Shown here one piece after another: positions 28,910 through 37,287 of a stretch of 64,000 nt of DNA. Under the pieces are notes generated by a model. It saw only the letters and a list, made by a program, of their open reading frames with translations, ran no database searches and was not told the DNA's origin. Position numbers and translations under genes: made by a program. Source of the DNA: Sedimentisphaerales bacterium (GTDB taxonomy: Bacteria; Planctomycetota; Phycisphaerae; Sedimentisphaerales; SM23-30); NCBI GenBank assembly GCA_963666285.1, contig OY762711.1. One strand, written 5' to 3'. Each line of letters begins with the position of its first letter. Position 1 is the first letter of the stretch.

Positions 28910-29413
28910 GTGATGAAAATAACAGAAAATAAAATTTTAGAGATTTTGCTCAAGAGTCGTATGAAACTTACTGCTTATATACGTACTATTGTAGGGGATT
29001 TTCATTGTGCAGAGGATGTTTTCCAGGATGTTTCCATGAAAGCAATTCGCTCAAGTGAACAATTTAAAGATATAAAACATCTCGAGCGTTGGCTTTGGGT
29101 TGTATGCCGCAACGATGCGTTAATTAAGCAGAGAGAACAAAAGAAATTACCTGTTTTTATAGACAAAGATATATTGGATTCAATTCATGATGAGTTCCAG
29201 AAAACAAACCTTTATGATTTAAATGATACAGAAATAAAATTAGAGAAATGTTTAGGTAAGTTAACAGGTTTCTCCAGAAAACTGATCATGTTGAGATATC
29301 GTAAGAACTTAACTGGGCAAAAGCTAGCAAAAGAGCTGAATAGAAAAGTAGAGTCGATCTATGTAGCTTTGAGCAGGACTCATAAGACTTTACGAGAATG
29401 CATGAAGAGGTAA
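28910..29413 (+). CDS. ECF sigma-70 factor
   Basis: AEDVFQDV region 2, WL....RN, C-terminal HTH LMLRY...SIYVALSR...LRECM. Confidence 0.88.
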   Translation: MMKITENKILEILLKSRMKLTAYIRTIVGDFHCAEDVFQDVSMKAIRSSEQFKDIKHLERWLWVVCRNDALIKQREQKKLPVFIDKDILDSIHDEFQKTNLYDLNDTEIKLEKCLGKLTGFSRKLIMLRYRKNLTGQKLAKELNRKVESIYVALSRTHKTLRECMKR

Positions 29414-29436: not shown

Positions 29437-31170
29437 ATGAACCAGAAAAACGACAAAGAAATAAAAGACAAATTGGAAGAATTTGATTCACTTGTATATG
29501 CCTACTTTGATGGTATGGTAGATATACAGCAAATGGATGTCTTAAAACAATATTTGAGAGAAAAGTCATATGTTCGCAGGTTGGTAGATCTTTGTAGGCA
29601 CGACCAGTTGATTTATGAGTTAATGTCTTATGATGAACAGACGTTAGGTGATATTGAAACAAAAGTCTTTAGTGAAATCAAAGACGAAGGTAGTGTTTTA
29701 AAGGATTTAATTGCGTTAGAGCAGAATTCACCTGCAATTGAAATCCATAGCGAAGAGAAAAATATTGAAATCATATCAGAAATAGTTGAAAAAAAACAAT
29801 CTACGGGGAAATTTATTAAGTTGTATAATCGGATGATTTATATAGCTGCTGTATTTATGGTCATATTTATCGTTTATGCTAATGTTTTCCCCCCGCAATT
29901 ATCTGAAGAAGTAGCAACAGTGGTTGATCAATTGGATGTTAAGTGGGATATTTCTTCAGCTAAGCTAAAAAATGGTGAAAGAATACTAACTAATCAGTTG
30001 CCTTATAAGGTTGAGAAAGGGATAGTTAAGTTTTCTTATGATGAAGGAGTCGATGTTGTTATAGAAGGGCCAGCAGAGTTTACCGTAGAAAAGAAAGGTA
30101 TAACAATATCCAAAGGTCTTTTGTACTCGTATGTTTCAGAAGTTGGTCAAGGATTTACTGTAGATACTCCCAATAATCGGTTTATTGACCATGGCACAGA
30201 ATTTGGTGTTTATGTTGATCAAAATGCAACATCAGAGCTTCATGTTTATACTGGTGCAGTGCAATATTACTCCGGAATAAAAGGAGCTCCTAAGGCCAGT
30301 AAGACAATTAGAGCAAATAATGCTAGAAGGTTTGATGCAGATTCTGGGCAAATTCAAAATATACGAGTTGAAGAGAATTTCTTTGCCAGAGATGTAAATT
30401 CAAAAACAGGTATAATATGGCGTGGTCAGGATATAGATTTGGCAGATATTGTTGGCGGTGGTACTGGCTTCGGAGGTGGCGAGCTGGAAAGCGGTATTGA
30501 CGTTGAAGATGGTCAGTGGAAGAATAAGGAAGTGCTGTATAGACAAAACTTGAGTGTCGGATGGATAAGATATAGTGACAATAAATATAATAAGGTTCCA
30601 ACTATAGATTATATTGATGGTGTATTTGTTCCATATGATGCTAATGGTCCGGTTCAACTTTCATCAAAAGGGCATAAATATTCTGGTTTTCATGTAGGTA
30701 GTAACGAGCACTGGAACAATATTTGCTTTGGTGCCTGGCATGAATCAAGTCATGCACCTAAGCATAATTTGAGCTCTGAAGGTATAACTTATGGTTTAGA
30801 TAGTGATACGGCTGCAATTACAATACATTCCAATCAGGGAATTACTTTTGACTTAGATGCGATCAGGAAAAATATACCTGAAAGAAGAATCTCTAAATTT
30901 ACAACAAAAGTAGCGATTTCAGAATCGATATTATTTTTTGGCAAGGAAGACGGTGTCGAAGAAAATCCTTCAAAGGTTGACTTCTGGTGTTTTGTCGATG
31001 GCGAGCTAAGAGATAAGCAAGAAGGTATTACATATAGAGACGGGCTGGTTGAAGTTGAAATAGTCCTGGATGACAACGAAAGATATTTAACGCTCGTTGT
31101 AACAGAATCTGATGATAAATGTAGTTTTGACTGGGCTTTTCTTGCAAGACCGGTATTGGTTGTAGAATAA
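29437..31170 (+). CDS. FecR-like anti-sigma factor with C-terminal NPCBM/NEW2-like domain
   Basis: Single TM; VVIEGPAEF, GFTVDTP, DHGTEFGV, HVYTGAV; C-terminal ITFDLDAIR...FVDG...YLTLVVT. Confidence 0.82.
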   Translation: MNQKNDKEIKDKLEEFDSLVYAYFDGMVDIQQMDVLKQYLREKSYVRRLVDLCRHDQLIYELMSYDEQTLGDIETKVFSEIKDEGSVLKDLIALEQNSPAIEIHSEEKNIEIISEIVEKKQSTGKFIKLYNRMIYIAAVFMVIFIVYANVFPPQLSEEVATVVDQLDVKWDISSAKLKNGERILTNQLPYKVEKGIVKFSYDEGVDVVIEGPAEFTVEKKGITISKGLLYSYVSEVGQGFTVDTPNNRFIDHGTEFGVYVDQNATSELHVYTGAVQYYSGIKGAPKASKTIRANNARRFDADSGQIQNIRVEENFFARDVNSKTGIIWRGQDIDLADIVGGGTGFGGGELESGIDVEDGQWKNKEVLYRQNLSVGWIRYSDNKYNKVPTIDYIDGVFVPYDANGPVQLSSKGHKYSGFHVGSNEHWNNICFGAWHESSHAPKHNLSSEGITYGLDSDTAAITIHSNQGITFDLDAIRKNIPERRISKFTTKVAISESILFFGKEDGVEENPSKVDFWCFVDGELRDKQEGITYRDGLVEVEIVLDDNERYLTLVVTESDDKCSFDWAFLARPVLVVE

Positions 31171-31250
31171 AATAGCTCGATTTCAAGTATTCGTCAAATA
31201 TGTTTAGGCAGTATGGTTTCTTAATAATGAATAAAAGAAGAGAATGGTAT

Positions 31251-32785
31251 ATGAGAGCGCCAAGCGAAGCTAATGTAGTCAAGCCGGCCAATCCGGCATG
31301 GGTAAGGGCTAGCCACCCGCCCATTACAGCACCGGGCGTGCAGAGAGGTAACGAACTGTACGAAGCCCCGGGAAAGGAGTTTGTCAGCCACAACGCAAGT
31401 GAAGGTGTTGAGCCCCGAAATTATTCCTTATCGCATCCGGGCCAGGGTTTTCATATGCCTGAAGCCAATATCGATATATGCGAAATACGGCGAGCATCTA
31501 TCGACGAGCCGGGGTCTGAGTCCGTAGCGGGCAAACGAACTGACTGCATTGGAACTTGGGAGAACCGAAGTGCTCCGAAAGGAAGCGGCCAAGGAGCTGA
31601 AACCGTGACGCGGCCGTATGGCATTTTGGTAGTCGGACTGACTCATAGTAGAGGAGTAAACAGGGTAATGCCTGTTGAGTTTCGAAGTTTGAGGCACTCG
31701 AAGGGGTCAGCATTAATGTGTAAAGGCGAAACAGGATATTGGCCAGGCACTGAACTGGAAGAAACCATGAACGTTCCACAGCGTCTTCTATCGGATACTT
31801 CTACAAGGCACATTACTTTGCCTTATGTAGCCGTCAAAGTGAGCATTAATGAAGAGCCGGATGAGGGAAATCTTCAAGTCCGGTTCAGTGAGGGGCATGC
31901 GTTTCCTTGCACAAAATATAATGAAACTCAGAATTTGTTAAATTAATGAAAGGAGGCGACATGCCTACTCGACAAAAAAGAGGTTTTACATTAATTGAAT
32001 TGCTTGTTGTTATTTCCATTATTGCTTTGCTGGTCAGCATCCTTATGCCAGCACTGACTCGCGCCAAACAGCAGGCCCAGTTTGCCGTATGTAAGGCAAA
32101 TTTGAGACAGTATGGTATTGCTATGAATTTATATCTCCAGGATAGCGATGACAGATTCCCGGAAGCTCATACAAGTCTCTTTCGGGGGATAAGGTCTGAA
32201 TGTCAGTGGCATGATGCCCGCAATGATTATGAAGCGGATACAAGTGTTCGTGGCCCGATGTTAAAATATCTAAGTGATATGGATGTGCATTTATGCCCGA
32301 CTTTTATGCGTTTTGCAGCACGAGTGGGAGAACAGCATCTCGAGCCTTTTGGTAGAACTTGTAGTGTACCGATGGATCCTCAATATAGTTATAGTCAGAA
32401 TAAATACCTGGGCGGGACAAACTCAAATGGGGAATATGTTGGAGTTTCCAGGCTAACTCAGATAAAGAACCCGGGAGAGGTTATTTTCTTTGTTGAAGAA
32501 ACTATGTGGATCATTCCCGGTCAGTCATCGCATATGCTTAACGATACCTGTTTCTGGTCCCGCCATCCACACGATTCGGTAGGATACTTGGGTGATAGTA
32601 TTGCGATGTATCATAATACTACCAAGAAGGATGAGGGTAACGGTAACACTGTATTCGCCGATGGCCATGTTGATTTGAGTAATGTATTTGAAGAATTTGC
32701 TTATTCCTGGGGTAAAGTAACTAGCAGTTTCAAGAAGTCATGGCCAAAGGGTAAAATACCAGAGATCTGTCCATATCAAAATTGA
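31251..32785 (+). CDS. prepilin-type (H-X9-DG) protein split by the intron: join(31251..31254,31974..32785); alternative unspliced start ATG 31961
   Basis: Spliced [18 protein letters not shown]; unspliced MPTRQKRG|FTLIE; CKANL, GNTVFADGHV. Confidence 0.85.
31255..31973 (+). mobile_element. ORF-less group II intron, subgroup IIB
   Basis: 5' GAGCG; EBS1 TCATAT (31451-31456) complementary to exon IBS1 ATATGA (31249-31254); DV GAGCCGGATGAGGGAAATCTTCAAGTCCGGTTC (31854-31886); DVI with bulged A31967 and 3' end CCTACTCGAC; no RT ORF. Confidence 0.9.
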
Positions 32786-32941: not shown

Positions 32942-34918
32942 ATGAAAAAAATAGGTATCTTAATTGCATGTATTTTCATGTCAGCCGTCTGGGGAAAAGC
33001 CGACCTGATAACGAATGGAGATTTTGAAGAGGGAGGAGACTGGAAATCTCAATACGGTCAGTCTCCATCAGGCTGGACAAGCAGTTCTGCTGCAGTTTAT
33101 ACAGAAAGTGAATACGGTGAGATAATCGATAATCTCGATACCCGCCCGGCATGTATGATGGCAGGTATCGGCAATTATTATCAGCAAGTATTATCCAATG
33201 TTAATGCTGGTTCTGGCAGTACTTACAAGGTAACCTGCGACTATGGAGCCAGAAGTCATAGTGAATATAATCCCTACGTGTCGGTTGGCCATGAATATAT
33301 ATTAAGATTTTCTCTTTGGGATACAACAGATAATGTAGAGCTTGTTGGTGTTGATCAGACATTCGGATATCCAGGTGGTCATAATGACAATTTCCTGACA
33401 CCGGGTGAATATATTTTAACTTATGATAATTCTGGTTTATATGGACATGAACTTGCATTGCGCATTACACATAATACCCAGCCTCCTTCAGGTGCGCCCA
33501 AGTCTGTCTGTACTTCCATGATAGATAATGTAACTGTTGATATACAAAATGTTGCGAAGCTTGTTTCACCTTCTCCTAGCGGCATGACGGACCTAAAGGT
33601 CGAAACTATACTGGAATGGGATTCTCCTTCAAATTTTACTCCTACAGAATACCGCGTTTACTTTGGTACAACAGAACCTAATATGTTGTTTGATGATTAC
33701 GGCCTGACAGAACTGACAGCGGATCAGGAGCCATATACCTCGACAACAATCACACCGGTACAATGGCCGTTAGAATATCTTACTACTTATTATTGGGTAG
33801 TTGACAGCTATGATAATGATGTGCGTCACAAAGGTATGTTCTGGAGCTTTACAACAATAACAGCCAATGCGGTATTGAACAAAGATTCTGGCCCGTTTGA
33901 CTTGCTTGTCGCACCTGGAGATGAAGCCGTATTTACCGTTGCGGGTGAAAATATCGACGTGTATAAATGGTATGGTCCTAATGGTCTAATTGCTGGTGCA
34001 AATACCAATACATTGACATTAACTGATGTTCAGGCTGATGGTGAAGGTTATTATTATTGTGTAGTCGACAATACAGTCAACCCTAAGACCGAAAAATCAA
34101 GAGAAGCATATCTGCTGACAGAGCGTGTTATATCTCACTGGGAATTAGAAGGTAACCTATTGGATTCAGTTGGCGAAAATATCGGCTCAGAACCTGGTCC
34201 GAGATATGCAGCAGAAGGCATTGTTGGCACAATTTCCCTTGATGTTACACCAAATGATCCTAATACTTATGTTAGAGTGTCAAATGTTGATGAATTAAAT
34301 AATGGTATTAGCTTCACTATTGAAGCTTGGATCAAACCTGAAAATATCAATAATTACCATGCTATAGTCAGTAACCGCGGCGGCACAGTTGAAACTGGTG
34401 TTGATGGTGGCTACGTCCTTTATCTCTTGAGTAATGGTGGTATAGGTTTCTGGATTCACAATGGAATAGGTTTTAATAATACCACTACTGGCGGCGAACT
34501 GGTTACAATCGGTGAGTGGAATTATGTTGTCGCTATTTTTGATTCCGGTACCGCTACTGTATATGTAAATGGTGAACTTGCAGCAAGTGCTAAAGATCGG
34601 GTAATCAAACGAAATACAACTACCGACCTATATATTGGCGCAGGTGCTAATGATGAAGACCAGGCAGGATTTTACTTTGATGGCCTGATTGATGATGTTA
34701 CAATATGTAGCGGTGCCGCTCTAGATGCTTATCAAATAGCAGAAAATTATGTTACACAGTTTCCTGAAGCTGATATTTGTGTTGAGCAGGAAGGTATCGC
34801 ATATGATCTGGATAATGACTGTGATGTTGATCTGGCAGATTTTGCACTGCTGGTATCTGAATGGTTAAATTGTAATCGTGTAGTAGGTGAAAACAGTCTT
34901 TTGAATGATTGTAATTAG
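32942..34918 (+). CDS. secreted CBM-like + Ig + LamG protein with C-terminal dockerin-like motif
   Basis: RBS AGGAG, signal peptide, NGDFE, YYWVVDS, Ig GYYYCVV, LamG FTIEAWIK...FDGLIDDV, DLDNDCDVDLADF...WLNC. Confidence 0.85.
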   Translation: MKKIGILIACIFMSAVWGKADLITNGDFEEGGDWKSQYGQSPSGWTSSSAAVYTESEYGEIIDNLDTRPACMMAGIGNYYQQVLSNVNAGSGSTYKVTCDYGARSHSEYNPYVSVGHEYILRFSLWDTTDNVELVGVDQTFGYPGGHNDNFLTPGEYILTYDNSGLYGHELALRITHNTQPPSGAPKSVCTSMIDNVTVDIQNVAKLVSPSPSGMTDLKVETILEWDSPSNFTPTEYRVYFGTTEPNMLFDDYGLTELTADQEPYTSTTITPVQWPLEYLTTYYWVVDSYDNDVRHKGMFWSFTTITANAVLNKDSGPFDLLVAPGDEAVFTVAGENIDVYKWYGPNGLIAGANTNTLTLTDVQADGEGYYYCVVDNTVNPKTEKSREAYLLTERVISHWELEGNLLDSVGENIGSEPGPRYAAEGIVGTISLDVTPNDPNTYVRVSNVDELNNGISFTIEAWIKPENINNYHAIVSNRGGTVETGVDGGYVLYLLSNGGIGFWIHNGIGFNNTTTGGELVTIGEWNYVVAIFDSGTATVYVNGELAASAKDRVIKRNTTTDLYIGAGANDEDQAGFYFDGLIDDVTICSGAALDAYQIAENYVTQFPEADICVEQEGIAYDLDNDCDVDLADFALLVSEWLNCNRVVGENSLLNDCN

Positions 34919-34998: not shown

Positions 34999-35750
34999 CT
35001 AAAATGTCTTCATCAAAAATAGATCTGAGGCAAAATTCACCTAGGATTTATGATTATCCGAAAGAAATTTGCTCTTTGAATAGTTGATATTGCCGGCGGA
35101 GGATGCTGAAAATTCAGAAAGATTTCTTAAAGAAATAATTGATTATAAATGGAACTTATTCTTATAGCTTAGTTTGTTTGGAACCTTGTCTTGCCAGGGG
35201 TAACCATCTCTGTGTGCGCAGTATGCATTTGCAGTCTGCTATTCATATTTACCAGGTTACCTTATCTTGTTAACCCGGGAGACAATCAAGAATATTATCT
35301 AGAGAACCATTAATAAGCAAATAAGAACCCTATATATATTAAGTGGAAATGGGTTGCGACAAGTACATGCATGATATTACCTCAGATTAGTTTTTGAGGT
35401 GGACAGATAATTTTTCACTTAAAAAATCGTCTTCCAGTTTTCTCTGAAACCACCAATTTGCGACTTAATTACCAATCGGTTTATCTGGTAAGCCCAACAG
35501 GGGAAATAGCCGTTTTATCCAAAAATTACTCTTCGCCGCGCTAGCTCCGCAGACGTCCGCGCCCGTTTACAGCCTTTCGCTGCCTGCCGCGCTGCCTCCG
35601 TTCGACGGCGTTTTCGCCGGAAAAATCAACTTTTCGCCAAATACTGTCTTATTTGAAAATTTCTTGCATACAATTCGGCCCGTTTGGGCATTCCATTTCC
35701 GCCGATATTGAGTTTGCCCGCTATACCCGGCATTGTGTATAATATCAAAC

Positions 35751-37079
35751 ATGACCGGCAAATCAGACAACAGGCTCGAGGCTGTACGCTCTCGCATACG
35801 CGAATTCCCCGCCGCGCCAGGCGTGTATATGATGAAAGACAACGCCGGCATTGTACTATACATCGGCAAGGCCGCCAACCTCCGCGATCGCGTCATGAGC
35901 TACTTTCAACCCTCCGCAGACCTCGCCAATAGCAGGGGGCCAAAGATCGTCGAGATGGTTTCTAAAGTCTGTGATGTAACGTATTTAGAGTGTGATAGCG
36001 AGGTCGACGCCATCCTCCGGGAAGCTCGTCTCATCAAAGATATCCACCCGCCGTACAACACCCGCCAGCTCGACGACAAGACCTTTCCATACATCGAGAT
36101 TACCCGCCAGGACGACTTTCCCGCGGTATATATTACCCGCGAACCGCACAAAAAGAGCAAGCTCTACGGCCCGTTTACATCAGTCAGCGAGCTGCGACGC
36201 GTCGTACAGGTCCTCCAGCGTATCTTCCGTTTCCGTACCTGCCGCCAGGAGATCCTCGCAGACGATCCCAAGCTGCGTTTCAACCGCCCGTGCATCCTTT
36301 ACAGCATCAAACAGTGTACCGGCCCGTGTGCTGGCAAGATCGATGCAGAATCGTATGCTGTTGAAATAAAACGACTTAAACAGTTCCTTGAATCCAAGCG
36401 TTCTACTCTGCTCCGCCAGCTGTACAAGGATATGACACAAGCCTCCCAGGACCTGAACTTCGAAGAAGCTGCCCGCCTGCGAGATGAAATCAAGGCCATA
36501 GAGGCCCTCAACGACCGCGGCAAAGTCGATGAACACGTTCAGCCCGAACTCTTCCAGATCGACCCGGCAGAAGGTATGCGTAACCTCGAGCGAATACTTA
36601 ACTTACGAGAAAACAGCCTTAGGGTTATCGAAGGTTATGATATCGCACATATACAAGGTACCAACACCGTCGCATCACAGGTATGTTTCATCGACGGCAG
36701 ACCGTTCAAAAACGGTTACCGTCGCTATAAGATCAAAACTGTCAAGGGGATAGACGATTTTGCCTCCATGAACGAGGTTATGTCGCGTCGATTTGCCAAG
36801 GCCGATCCAGACGATGAACTTTTCCCCAACCTGGTCCTCATCGACGGCGGACTCGGACAGCTCAACGCCGCCCTGGAGATCGTTTCCCAGATTCCGCTTA
36901 ACCGCCCGGCAATAATATCTTTAGCGAAGCGTGAAGAAGAGGTTTACATACCCGGCAAAGACACACCCATCCGTATTAGCCGACACGACCCGGCATTGAG
37001 AATTCTACAGCATATTCGTGACGAGGCGCACAGATTCGCTCAACACTACTTCCACATTCTCCAGCATAAAAACGTATAA
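35751..37079 (+). CDS. uvrC: excinuclease ABC subunit C (short form lacking the C-terminal HhH)
   Basis: GIY-YIG PGVY...YIGKA, Cys cluster, UVR FEEAARLRD, RNase H-like YDIAH, DDF, IDGGLGQ, RDEAHRFA. Confidence 0.93.
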   Translation: MTGKSDNRLEAVRSRIREFPAAPGVYMMKDNAGIVLYIGKAANLRDRVMSYFQPSADLANSRGPKIVEMVSKVCDVTYLECDSEVDAILREARLIKDIHPPYNTRQLDDKTFPYIEITRQDDFPAVYITREPHKKSKLYGPFTSVSELRRVVQVLQRIFRFRTCRQEILADDPKLRFNRPCILYSIKQCTGPCAGKIDAESYAVEIKRLKQFLESKRSTLLRQLYKDMTQASQDLNFEEAARLRDEIKAIEALNDRGKVDEHVQPELFQIDPAEGMRNLERILNLRENSLRVIEGYDIAHIQGTNTVASQVCFIDGRPFKNGYRRYKIKTVKGIDDFASMNEVMSRRFAKADPDDELFPNLVLIDGGLGQLNAALEIVSQIPLNRPAIISLAKREEEVYIPGKDTPIRISRHDPALRILQHIRDEAHRFAQHYFHILQHKNV

Positions 37080-37213: not shown

Positions 37214-37287
37214 GGCGACGTAGCCAAGTGGCCTAAGGCAACGGTTTGCAAAACCGTCATTCGTGGGTTCAAATCCCACCGTCGCCT
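37214..37287 (+). tRNA. tRNA-Cys (GCA)
   Basis: Acceptor GGCGACG/CGTCGCC, anticodon arm ACGGT-TTGCAAA-ACCGT, T-loop GGTTCAAATCC, discriminator U; CCA not encoded. Confidence 0.95.

Follow-up and report, generated by a model that had tools for sequence, protein, structure and literature searches.

Can a bacterial gene that was interrupted by a group II intron one base after its start codon be expressed whether or not the intron is removed? The question is raised by a locus in a stretch of 64,000 nucleotides (nt) of contig OY762711.1 from a Sedimentisphaerales bacterium (Planctomycetota; GenBank assembly GCA_963666285.1), which we call the window and whose positions are used below. Here, a 719-nt group II intron without an open reading frame (ORF) lies 4 nt into a prepilin-type gene. 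An initial annotation, made from the sequence alone, had described it as a host-neutral 'start-codon' intron or a domesticated expression element that carries its own replacement ribosome-binding site and start codon in domain VI (DVI). Our analysis makes it nearly certain that the element is a group II intron and that it belongs to a mobile lineage that targets start codons. We consider it rather probable that this copy is a recently transposed, ORF-less, start-site-homing intron that leaves the pilin-like gene two routes of expression; to judge by sequence comparison, the gene is probably readable irrespective of removal of the intron.

Identification of the intron and its boundaries

Both group II intron models of Rfam matched the locus above their cut-offs (49 bits for RF02005 and 40 bits for RF00029), which confirmed the annotated ORF-less intron within the prepilin-type gene. 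The features of the interrupted gene, with exon- and intron-binding sites (EBS and IBS), the Shine-Dalgarno (SD) sequence, domain V (DV) and the minimum free energy (MFE) fold, are as follows:

31242-31254, + strand: end of the 5' exon, with the IBS2 candidate 31242-31247, IBS1 31249-31254, the host ATG 31251-31253 and A31254 (sequence)
31255-31973, + strand: ORF-less group II intron, 719 nt, with 5' G31255 (GAGCG) and 3' C31973 (Rfam RF02005 and RF00029)
31288-31524, + strand: domain I core (RF02005, group-II-D1D4-6, 112.2 bits, E 5.8e-31, model 1-225 of 225)
31421-31431, + strand: EBS2-position loop TTATTCCTTAT, anti-SD-like, containing the initially annotated EBS2 31421-31426 (unpaired in the Rfam structure line)
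31451-31456, + strand: EBS1 TCATAT, pairing with 31249-31254 (hairpin loop in the Rfam alignment)
31251-31946, + strand: host-frame reading through the ribozyme, consisting of the host ATG, 229 intron sense codons and TAA 31944-31946 (sequence)
31854-31886, + strand: DV, AGC triad 31855-31857 (RF00029 alignment; consensus fold)
31889-31971, + strand: DVI, a long hairpin with branch A31967 (MFE fold; basal helix in the 23-sequence consensus)
31896-31908, + strand: 5' strand of DVI, CAT then GCGTTTCCTT, pairing with the ATG and the SD sequence (fold)
31946-31948, + strand: in-phase upstream ATG overlapping TAA as TAATG (sequence; the ORF listing gives 31946-32785)
31950-31956, + strand: intron-borne SD sequence AAGGAGG (sequence)
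31961-31963, + strand: intron-borne ATG at position -13 from the 3' end of the intron, in phase with exon 2 (sequence)
31974-32785, + strand: 3' exon, body of the prepilin-type (type IV pilin-like, N-methylation motif) gene (PF07963, TIGR02532)

The RF00029 match covered 31852-31973 of the + strand with 52.3 bits, and its alignment agreed with the annotated DV and AGC triad; as had been noted, Rfam found a single DV/DVI in the window. In a consensus fold of 23 relatives, 13 pairs of DV were kept, three of them with compensatory changes. The proposed branch point and the intron end at 31973 were also borne out, since A31967 was bulged between two helix segments, 7 nt from the 3' end, in both the MFE fold and the consensus of the 23 relatives. 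The intron ends in AC and has a GC content of 50.3%, compared with 41% for the genome. For the annotated subgroup IIB, which is best regarded as putative, the indications are indirect: the AC end, the loop at the EBS2 position and the A at +1 of 49 of 52 relatives (see below). EBS1 lies in a terminal loop left open by the Rfam model and pairs with all six bases of IBS1 at the window locus, as annotated; at the sites of the sister copies, five of the six bases pair or the pairing includes G-U.

Two proposed routes to one mature protein

The N-methylation motif of the host protein was recognized by PF07963 (33.4 bits, cut-off 21.2) and TIGR02532 (32 bits, cut-off 16.3). The leader is short and basic, with G at -1, F at +1 and E at +5, and is followed by a hydrophobic helix. 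Joining of the exons restores the predicted in-frame leader MKKRG in an ORF of 271 amino acids (aa). On the 3' strand of DVI, both AAGGAGG (31950-31956) and the in-phase ATG (31961-31963) are present as annotated, and an unspliced RNA read from this ATG would give 274 aa in the same frame, with the leader MPTRQKRG. This genome encodes 28 prepilin-like motifs, whose leaders measure 5-14 aa and include MKKKG twice and MKRKG; it also contains a Peptidase_A24 gene (37.4 bits). Both leaders are therefore plausible peptidase substrates, and, by established prepilin processing, the mature proteins of both routes would be identical after cleavage between G and F, in line with the initial annotation.

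Intron-less orthologs had been expected to begin with MKKRGF; the nearest homolog found, from the related genome G011 (56% identity), begins with MKKRA on ATGAAA, which is itself a suitable target site, and continues with AFTL. No FecR or LamG match was present within 1.5 kb of this homolog, and genomes of the same genus contained no close ortholog of the pilin-like gene.

Start codons as insertion sites throughout the lineage

Relatives were collected from three sources: a BLASTN search of 41 related genomes including this one (G000), with matches in 12; a scan of public genomes for the exact DV pattern, which gave at least 117 stretches, 80 of which were examined; and a metagenome scan seeded with an alignment of the host-frame peptide, from which 80 loci, 30 of them with complete introns, were kept. 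The metagenome sample is neutral as to insertion sites and not neutral as to frame, because it was seeded with an open-frame peptide. The pooled set, drawn from this genome, related and public genomes and metagenomes, held 55 complete introns, 22 of them ORF-less by size. The taxa among the matches listed were mostly non-proteobacterial (Planctomycetota, Spirochaetia, Omnitrophota, Fibrobacterota, Ignavibacteriales, Scalindua and others). A DNA-level search of 401 genomes of the phylum for further family members gave matches in just three other genomes, each partial.

An ATG at -13 was present in 53 of the 55 complete introns. The 5' exons of these 53 ended in ATGA (46 cases), GTGA (2), ATGG (1) or another sequence (4), so that a start codon directly preceded the insertion in 49 of them; a host SD-like tract lay upstream of 41 of these 49 start codons, the flanks being too short to judge in two of the other eight. 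The +1 base was A in 49 of 52 cases. Within the intron, an SD-like tract stood 4-10 nt 5' of the ATG in 50 of the 53, in varying words (AAGGAGG, AGGAG, GGAGG or AAGGA). The phase of the intron ATG with exon 2 is fixed by construction, with no stops between them.

The two introns with ACG at -13 are inserted at non-start sites with C at +1, and in both the helix partner CAU is changed to CGU. The DVI helix therefore does not need AUG, because the ACG/CGU variant keeps the pairing. In further introns with the same DV and a different DVI, from archaea, WOR-3 and other sources, position -13 is taken by different triplets, and the insertion is not at a start codon. As far as sequence comparison can tell, the ATG at -13 with its SD-like tract is a lineage trait tied to insertion at start codons. 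The host-neutral start-codon intron of the initial annotation gains comparative support from this trait; free initiation within the intron is doubtful, as the SD sequence and AUG appear to be paired (see below).

Some members of this wider group deserve separate mention. In the ACG clade (L067, L113 and L123; Phycisphaerae/Planctomycetota), the +1 base is C, the last bases of the targets are GGAGA or GGAGT, and an SD-like tract is missing from two of the three members. Introns from Methanosarcinales/Methanoperedens (L060, L062, L070, L089, L108, L118 and others) share the DV and end in ..AAAGGTGGGCTATGGGCTCTACTCGAC; their ATG at -16, in the phase of -13, follows a GGTG-type tract. Neither of the two whose 5' ends are complete lies at a start codon. 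In the planctomycete sequence L097, the 3' end of a lineage intron adjoins a prepilin-like exon (..KGFTLVEL from ATG-A), the 5' part lying beyond the contig end.

Probable reading of the target site

EBS1 covers UAUGA, and its core CAU complements AUG; GTG sites are accounted for by G-U pairing with EBS1. The loop at the EBS2 position, directly after GAGCCCCGAAA, is CU-rich. Of the 45 start-site introns, 40 had a UCC/CCC core (20 when counted over the 25 distinct loops), and of the five at other sites none did; matched variants of loop and exon were observed, CCCCC occurring with GGGGG and ACCCU with AGGGU. From this composition and covariation, we infer that the loop reads the host SD sequence. 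The partner tract varies in position between about -9 and -19, and few duplexes, taken singly, outperform shuffled sequence. Of the EBS2-IBS2 contact annotated at the window locus (31421-31426 with 31242-31247), the pairing itself exists; it is no better than in shuffles, and its register is not kept in the sister copies. In IIE/IIF introns, EBS2-IBS2 is described, in the part of PMC3753933 that deals with it, as dispensable for self-splicing and is suggested to serve retrohoming, which would fit a loose IBS2 requirement in the window lineage.

Copies and mobility in this genome

Copies were collected by BLASTN and RF00029 over the whole assembly. The set comprises eight 719-nt copies with 0-3 differences, one 648-nt variant, two 1929-nt copies and one 282-nt 3' fragment, so that the sister copies for which the initial annotation had suggested a BLASTN search are indeed present as eight near-identical sequences. 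The window copy differs by one base from three sisters and by three bases from four more, all at unrelated genes. Each of the eight ORF-less copies is immediately preceded by (T)ATGA and has A at +1. Six of them open ORFs of 153-515 codons with N-termini that by eye resemble leaders or signal peptides, and the sites of the remaining two are doubtful or decoys. Among the 6248 TATGAA sites of the genome, 20.9% open ORFs of 150 codons or more, compared with these six of eight copies (P=0.0016). A smaller probability, 4.7e-07, presupposes an SD sequence at all six sites and was set aside, since the pilin site showed none in a regular-expression search.

The 1929-nt copies encode a group II reverse transcriptase (RT)/maturase (TIGR04416, 340 bits, residues 47-416 of 450), in which neither Pfam nor NCBIfam reported a nuclease family. 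The two copies are located at G000:C1:910721-912649 and 5395339-5397267; one RT active site is YADD and one YADN. In a PDB sequence search with this RT, LtrA, IIC and IIB RTs scored alike, so the search did not separate the classes. The 1929-nt copies are 85% identical to the ORF-less intron over nt 1-425, and their EBS1 is complementary to TTAAGA, not TATGA. Because of the different EBS1 and the 85% identity, the ORF-less family is a diverged relative of the 1929-nt copies and not a simple deletion of them.

GC skew indicated an origin at about 5.73 Mb and a terminus at about 2.70 Mb. Each of the 12 copies and fragments is co-oriented with replication, compared with 63% of long ORFs (P=0.004), a bias that fits retrohoming without an endonuclease on the lagging-strand template. 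Together, the eight near-identical copies and their RT-encoding relatives point to a recent mobile burst, and the freshness of the copies suggests that the GAGCG variant of the intron 5' end is active. The other description offered initially, a domesticated expression element, was not supported, since the window intron is one of eight copies with 0-3 differences and RT-encoding relatives are present; domestication of this particular copy at its locus is unlikely.

Several other loci of this set were noted. The fragment at G000:C1:4809701-4809982 consists of the last 282 nt of the 1929-nt intron (98.9% identity), as after incomplete reverse transcription. At the sister c4 (G000:C1:2351430-2352148; L004), ATGA follows 62 open in-frame codons with an RHS/YD-repeat-like end (..YYLHDHLNSP..); the ligated ORF has only 86 aa, and the copy may lie at the head of a downstream cassette in a polymorphic-toxin-type locus instead of at the start of a separate gene. 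Copies c5 and d9 and one RT-encoding copy (G000:C1:5266367, 1613560 and 5395339; L005, L009 and L010) lie in short repeats, for example GAAGGATGA and AATTATGAATGCTGAATTATGA, that mimic an SD sequence and ATGA where there is no gene, the ligated ORFs being 5-10 aa long. The flanks of d9 resemble those of the long, RT-encoding copy at 5395339.

In runs X1-X3, the contigs break at the intron ends, and depth rises from about 21 to about 175. In runs X1 and X2, two contigs exit the 3' end of the intron (window 31977) into a flank unlike all eight assembled sites, which suggests a further copy in the sampled population.

The spare start in domain VI: start signal or helix strand

In the MFE fold, the AUG at 31961-31963 pairs with CAU 31896-31898, and AAGGAGG pairs with the CU-rich strand 31899-31908; DVI alone has an MFE of -29.6 kcal/mol at the window copy and of -14 to -43 kcal/mol across the relatives. 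The basal helix, including AUG/CAU, was recovered in the 23-sequence consensus fold. The SD/anti-SD helix was not recovered there, because its spacing varies in the alignment, and per-sequence folds were used instead. A folded intron would hide its own start, so a given RNA should permit either splicing or internal initiation, not both.

These folds bring in the most serious alternative, namely that the element is an ordinary selfish intron on whose splicing the host depends wholly, that the ATG and purine tract are a helix strand, and that start sites are merely a tolerated match to EBS1/EBS3 (UAUGA followed by A). The stable DVI hairpin and its pairing in most relatives speak for it. So does mobility, as eight fresh copies show the ribozyme to be splicing-competent, and so does the dispensability in vitro of EBS2-IBS2 in small IIE/IIF introns, as described in the part of PMC3753933 concerned. 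Structure alone does not fix AUG, however, as the ACG/CGU clade and the other -13 triplets of relatives sharing the DV demonstrate. Moreover, the purine tract invariably occupies the 3' strand, at an SD-like distance from the AUG and in varied SD-like words, and in the window family the tract has been strengthened to AAGGAGG, 4 nt from the ATG. On balance, we regard the selfish-intron explanation as unlikely, though a contender to be kept in view, and it seems somewhat more credible than its opposite, on the sequence evidence given, that the intron-borne SD sequence and AUG serve host expression.

A number of observations nevertheless weigh against the reading of the locus as a start-site-homing intron with two expression routes. 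Among 43 distinct DVI folds, the AUG was fully paired in 38, and at least four of five SD bases were paired in 32, which makes free initiation inside DVI doubtful; in these modelled structures, SD and AUG could be conserved as helix strands. The ATG-bearing introns form a single lineage and the ACG exceptions one small clade, so that the association with start sites rests on few independent events. As to the target, the spacing between SD and ATG varies among sites, whereas canonical IIB introns keep IBS2 and IBS1 in a fixed register; 56% of 200 exon shuffles pair as well as the EBS2 duplex of the window copy, and a regular-expression search found no SD-like tetramer upstream of the window host. 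Signal-peptide-like hosts (14 of 19, compared with a baseline of 53%; P=0.06, crude predictor) were not significantly enriched. The 5' end is GAGCG in all 11 copies of this genome and does not match the GUGYG consensus, the relatives having GTGCG (32), GTGTG (9) or GAGTG (1). Finally, the contigs of runs X1-X3, which break at the repeat, contained neither a joint spanning the intron nor an allele with an empty site.

An open reading frame through the ribozyme

From the host ATG, the ribozyme can be read without interruption. The host frame contains no stops, compared with 14 and 20 in the other two frames, and only one of 20000 shuffles was open. The terminating TAA (31944-31946) overlaps an in-phase ATG as TAATG, 4 nt before the intron SD sequence. 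Overlapping stop and start codons (UAAUG, UGAUG) are the arrangement of translational coupling in bacterial operons. By its sequence, the TAATG with the SD sequence behind it is a layout for termination-reinitiation coupling. The peptide of this frame starts with MRAP, as does a 69%-identical counterpart of 230 aa in a metagenome protein set.

The openness could also mean that the long ORF, which has 248 aa when read from 31200 and 231 aa when read from the host ATG, is a real protein gene that uses the start signals of the host. The rarity of open shuffles would agree with this, as would the 252 database proteins that match the through-ribozyme peptide, dozens of them of about 195 aa with the same stop. 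A 718-nt ORF-less metagenome family (L170-L175, L169, L174), with the same DVI as the window intron and 78-80% identity to it, possesses its own GGAGG and ATG near intron nt 104, and third codon positions vary in slight excess (49 sites compared with 31 and 32). The peptide, however, matched no Pfam family, and an AlphaFold2 model (12-sequence alignment) had a mean predicted local distance difference test score (pLDDT) of 29.8 and a predicted template modelling score (pTM) of 0.14, and the long ORF was rejected as a protein. Ribozyme domains cover the whole stretch, residue changes in the DV stretch track compensatory changes of the RNA (e.g. DEGNLQVR and VAGNPHGG), the open frame differs between families, and database matches occur only where the frame happens to be open. 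A protein gene is thus very improbable, and the earlier description of the 248-aa ORF as ribozyme sequence was correct.

At its furthest, the start-site-homing reading would make the element a translation-transparent retroelement, with ribosome-like targeting, a returned SD and AUG, a ribozyme kept stop-free in the 719-nt family, ribosomes from the host AUG that melt DVI and reinitiate after terminating at TAATG, and a splicing reaction that is optional for the host and serves mobility only. We consider this stronger version possible at best and rather doubtful. Openness through the intron is not a trait of the lineage: the 732-nt ORF-less intron of the related genome G004, the 718-nt introns and RT-size copies contain 9-57 host-frame stops. 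Among ORF-less introns with a closed frame, the host-frame stops number 10-17 (12-17 in five 718-nt metagenome introns), and in other members of the lineage the first one occurs by intron nt 102, mostly at nt 87-90. The 718-nt family has an open stretch of 197-210 codons with the same stop at -30, in a different frame. The matches in protein databases are biased towards open frames. Variability by codon position (31, 32 and 49 of 197 sites each) is a weak test of selection, and so are simulations, in which the frame was open in 7% (same-site) and 1% of cases.

Neighbouring genes and a possible regulatory role

The pilin-like gene lies between the following genes:

28910-29413, + strand: ECF-type sigma factor gene, upstream (Pfam Sigma70_r2, 30.5 bits; r4_2 below its cut-off)
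29437-31170, + strand: FecR-like/NPCBM-domain gene, upstream (Pfam NPCBM, 29.1 bits; FecR 21 bits, below cut-off)
32942-34918, + strand: LamG (Laminin_G_3) domain gene, downstream (Pfam PF13385, 95.7 bits)

The annotated neighbours were therefore recovered, with the FecR domain below its cut-off. Further downstream, a tRNA gene (37214-37287; Rfam, 68.3 bits; GCA in the anticodon loop) lies just 3' of a uvrC-like ORF (35733-37079).

The position of the gene behind an ECF sigma/FecR pair would suit a third explanation, a domesticated switch that sets pilin expression in this operon by balancing DVI folding and splicing against internal initiation, and the masking of SD and AUG by DVI would make the two mutually exclusive on each RNA. 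On the other side, near-identical copies are found at unrelated genes and nothing is locus-specific, genomes of the same genus offer no close ortholog that would show retention, and the RT-encoding relatives imply that the intron is probably still mobile. We find the switch improbable.

Proposed mechanism and implications

In the mechanism that we propose for a start-site-homing intron with two expression routes, a lineage consisting of a small ribozyme and an endonuclease-less RT/maturase would home to translation start sites. The target would be chosen by EBS1 on UAUGA, by A at +1 and by the CU-rich EBS2-position loop on the host SD sequence, with the RT/maturase of the 1929-nt copies presumably supplying maturase and mobility functions in trans. 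By the first route, splicing would join ATG-A to exon 2 and yield the native leader MKKRG. By the second, ribosomes may initiate on unspliced RNA at the intron AAGGAGG and the AUG at -13, giving the leader MPTRQKRG; a second candidate start is the AUG at -28, within the TAATG at which the through-intron frame ends. This route probably needs the DVI hairpin to be melted, since both SD and AUG are tied up in it. Ribosomes that start at the host AUG could translate the ribozyme for 229 codons and terminate at TAATG, just before the SD sequence, where coupling might follow. Prepilin peptidase would then trim both precursors to one mature protein.

Two ways of survival are usually ascribed to bacterial group II introns, the avoidance of genes and efficient splicing. 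If the proposed mechanism is true, it would be a third strategy, insertion just inside many genes with a ribosome-binding site and a start codon returned to each, and the host would pay almost nothing for an insertion, above all in genes whose leader or signal peptide is cleaved off afterwards. It would further mean that an RNA guide has evolved to read the universal signals of translation initiation, with thousands of potential targets per genome. The question is relevant to the spread of introns within coding regions at a time when splicing was still inefficient, and retargetable introns that spare the entered gene could serve as tools.

Comparison with known systems

Full-text literature searches retrieved no description of a start-codon intron lineage with its own replacement SD and AUG. 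By the account of the IIB1 lineage (Michel 2007) in PMC12584367, its members occupy start and stop codons of proteobacterial housekeeping genes, have an Ia insertion of 300-700 nt, are about 3.2 kb long and encode a CL1-type RT. The groEL IIB1 introns replace the stop codon that they interrupt, UAA becoming UAG, so that the host product is unchanged without splicing (PMC12584367). Both lineages thus colonize start or stop codons, and the replacement stop in groEL follows the logic of a replacement start. The window intron differs in that the whole of it measures 719 nt, with the Rfam domain I model starting at intron nt 34 and no Ia insertion; in that the RT/maturase has about 445 aa and no nuclease family; and in that its lineage occurs in Planctomycetota and many other phyla, in diverse and often secreted host genes. 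The IIB1 start/stop-codon lineage is the nearest described system and, by its description, a different lineage from that of the window intron.

Among smaller introns, the IIE/IIF cluster consists of IIB-like ribozymes (450-700 nt without the ORF) with an endonuclease-less RT/maturase and a 3' end AC, and includes the anammox planctomycete intron c-Ku.st.I1 (in the sections concerned of PMC3753933 and PMC3552965). By this description, the window lineage is alike in its small ribozyme, its RT without an endonuclease, its 3' AC and a real-looking EBS2-IBS2, the class itself being defined by ORF phylogeny. The term 'start codon' has no occurrence in the text available of PMC3753933 or of PMC3552965. 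IIC introns, in the part of PMC12584367 on their targets, recognize Rho-independent terminators outside ORFs by a DNA hairpin and a short IBS1, with no EBS2. They resemble the window lineage in aiming at a generic functional signal of many genes, which gives dispersed copies with minimal harm to the host, but the window lineage enters the ORF itself, a single base beyond the start codon.

ORF-less derivatives are familiar from TeI3 of Thermosynechococcus elongatus, where such introns are mobilized by the RTs of related introns (PMC2882425, as excerpted). The likeness lies in multi-copy ORF-less derivatives beside RT-encoding relatives with a diverged EBS (TTAAGA and TATGA in the genome studied here), whereas the TeI3 targets named in that excerpt are intron ORFs, insertion sequence elements and intergenic DNA, with neither start codons nor a replacement start. 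C.te.I1 of Clostridium tetani, also an ORF-less intron in a surface-protein gene, uses alternative splice sites with repeated DV/DVI units, by the portion of PMC3919590 that describes it. In C.te.I1, splicing determines N- or C-terminal coding, but the window intron has a single DV/DVI and its alternative would be one of translation start, not of splicing. Self-splicing introns usually carry an early in-frame stop that keeps ribosomes out, according to the relevant passage of PMC3073962, and the open host frame of the window intron is the reverse arrangement.

A counterpart of the intron's 3' end is found in ordinary bacterial operons, which share the TAATG overlap with an SD sequence just past the stop of the upstream frame. 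The difference is that the upstream 'gene' at this locus is the ribozyme itself, read in the frame of its host.

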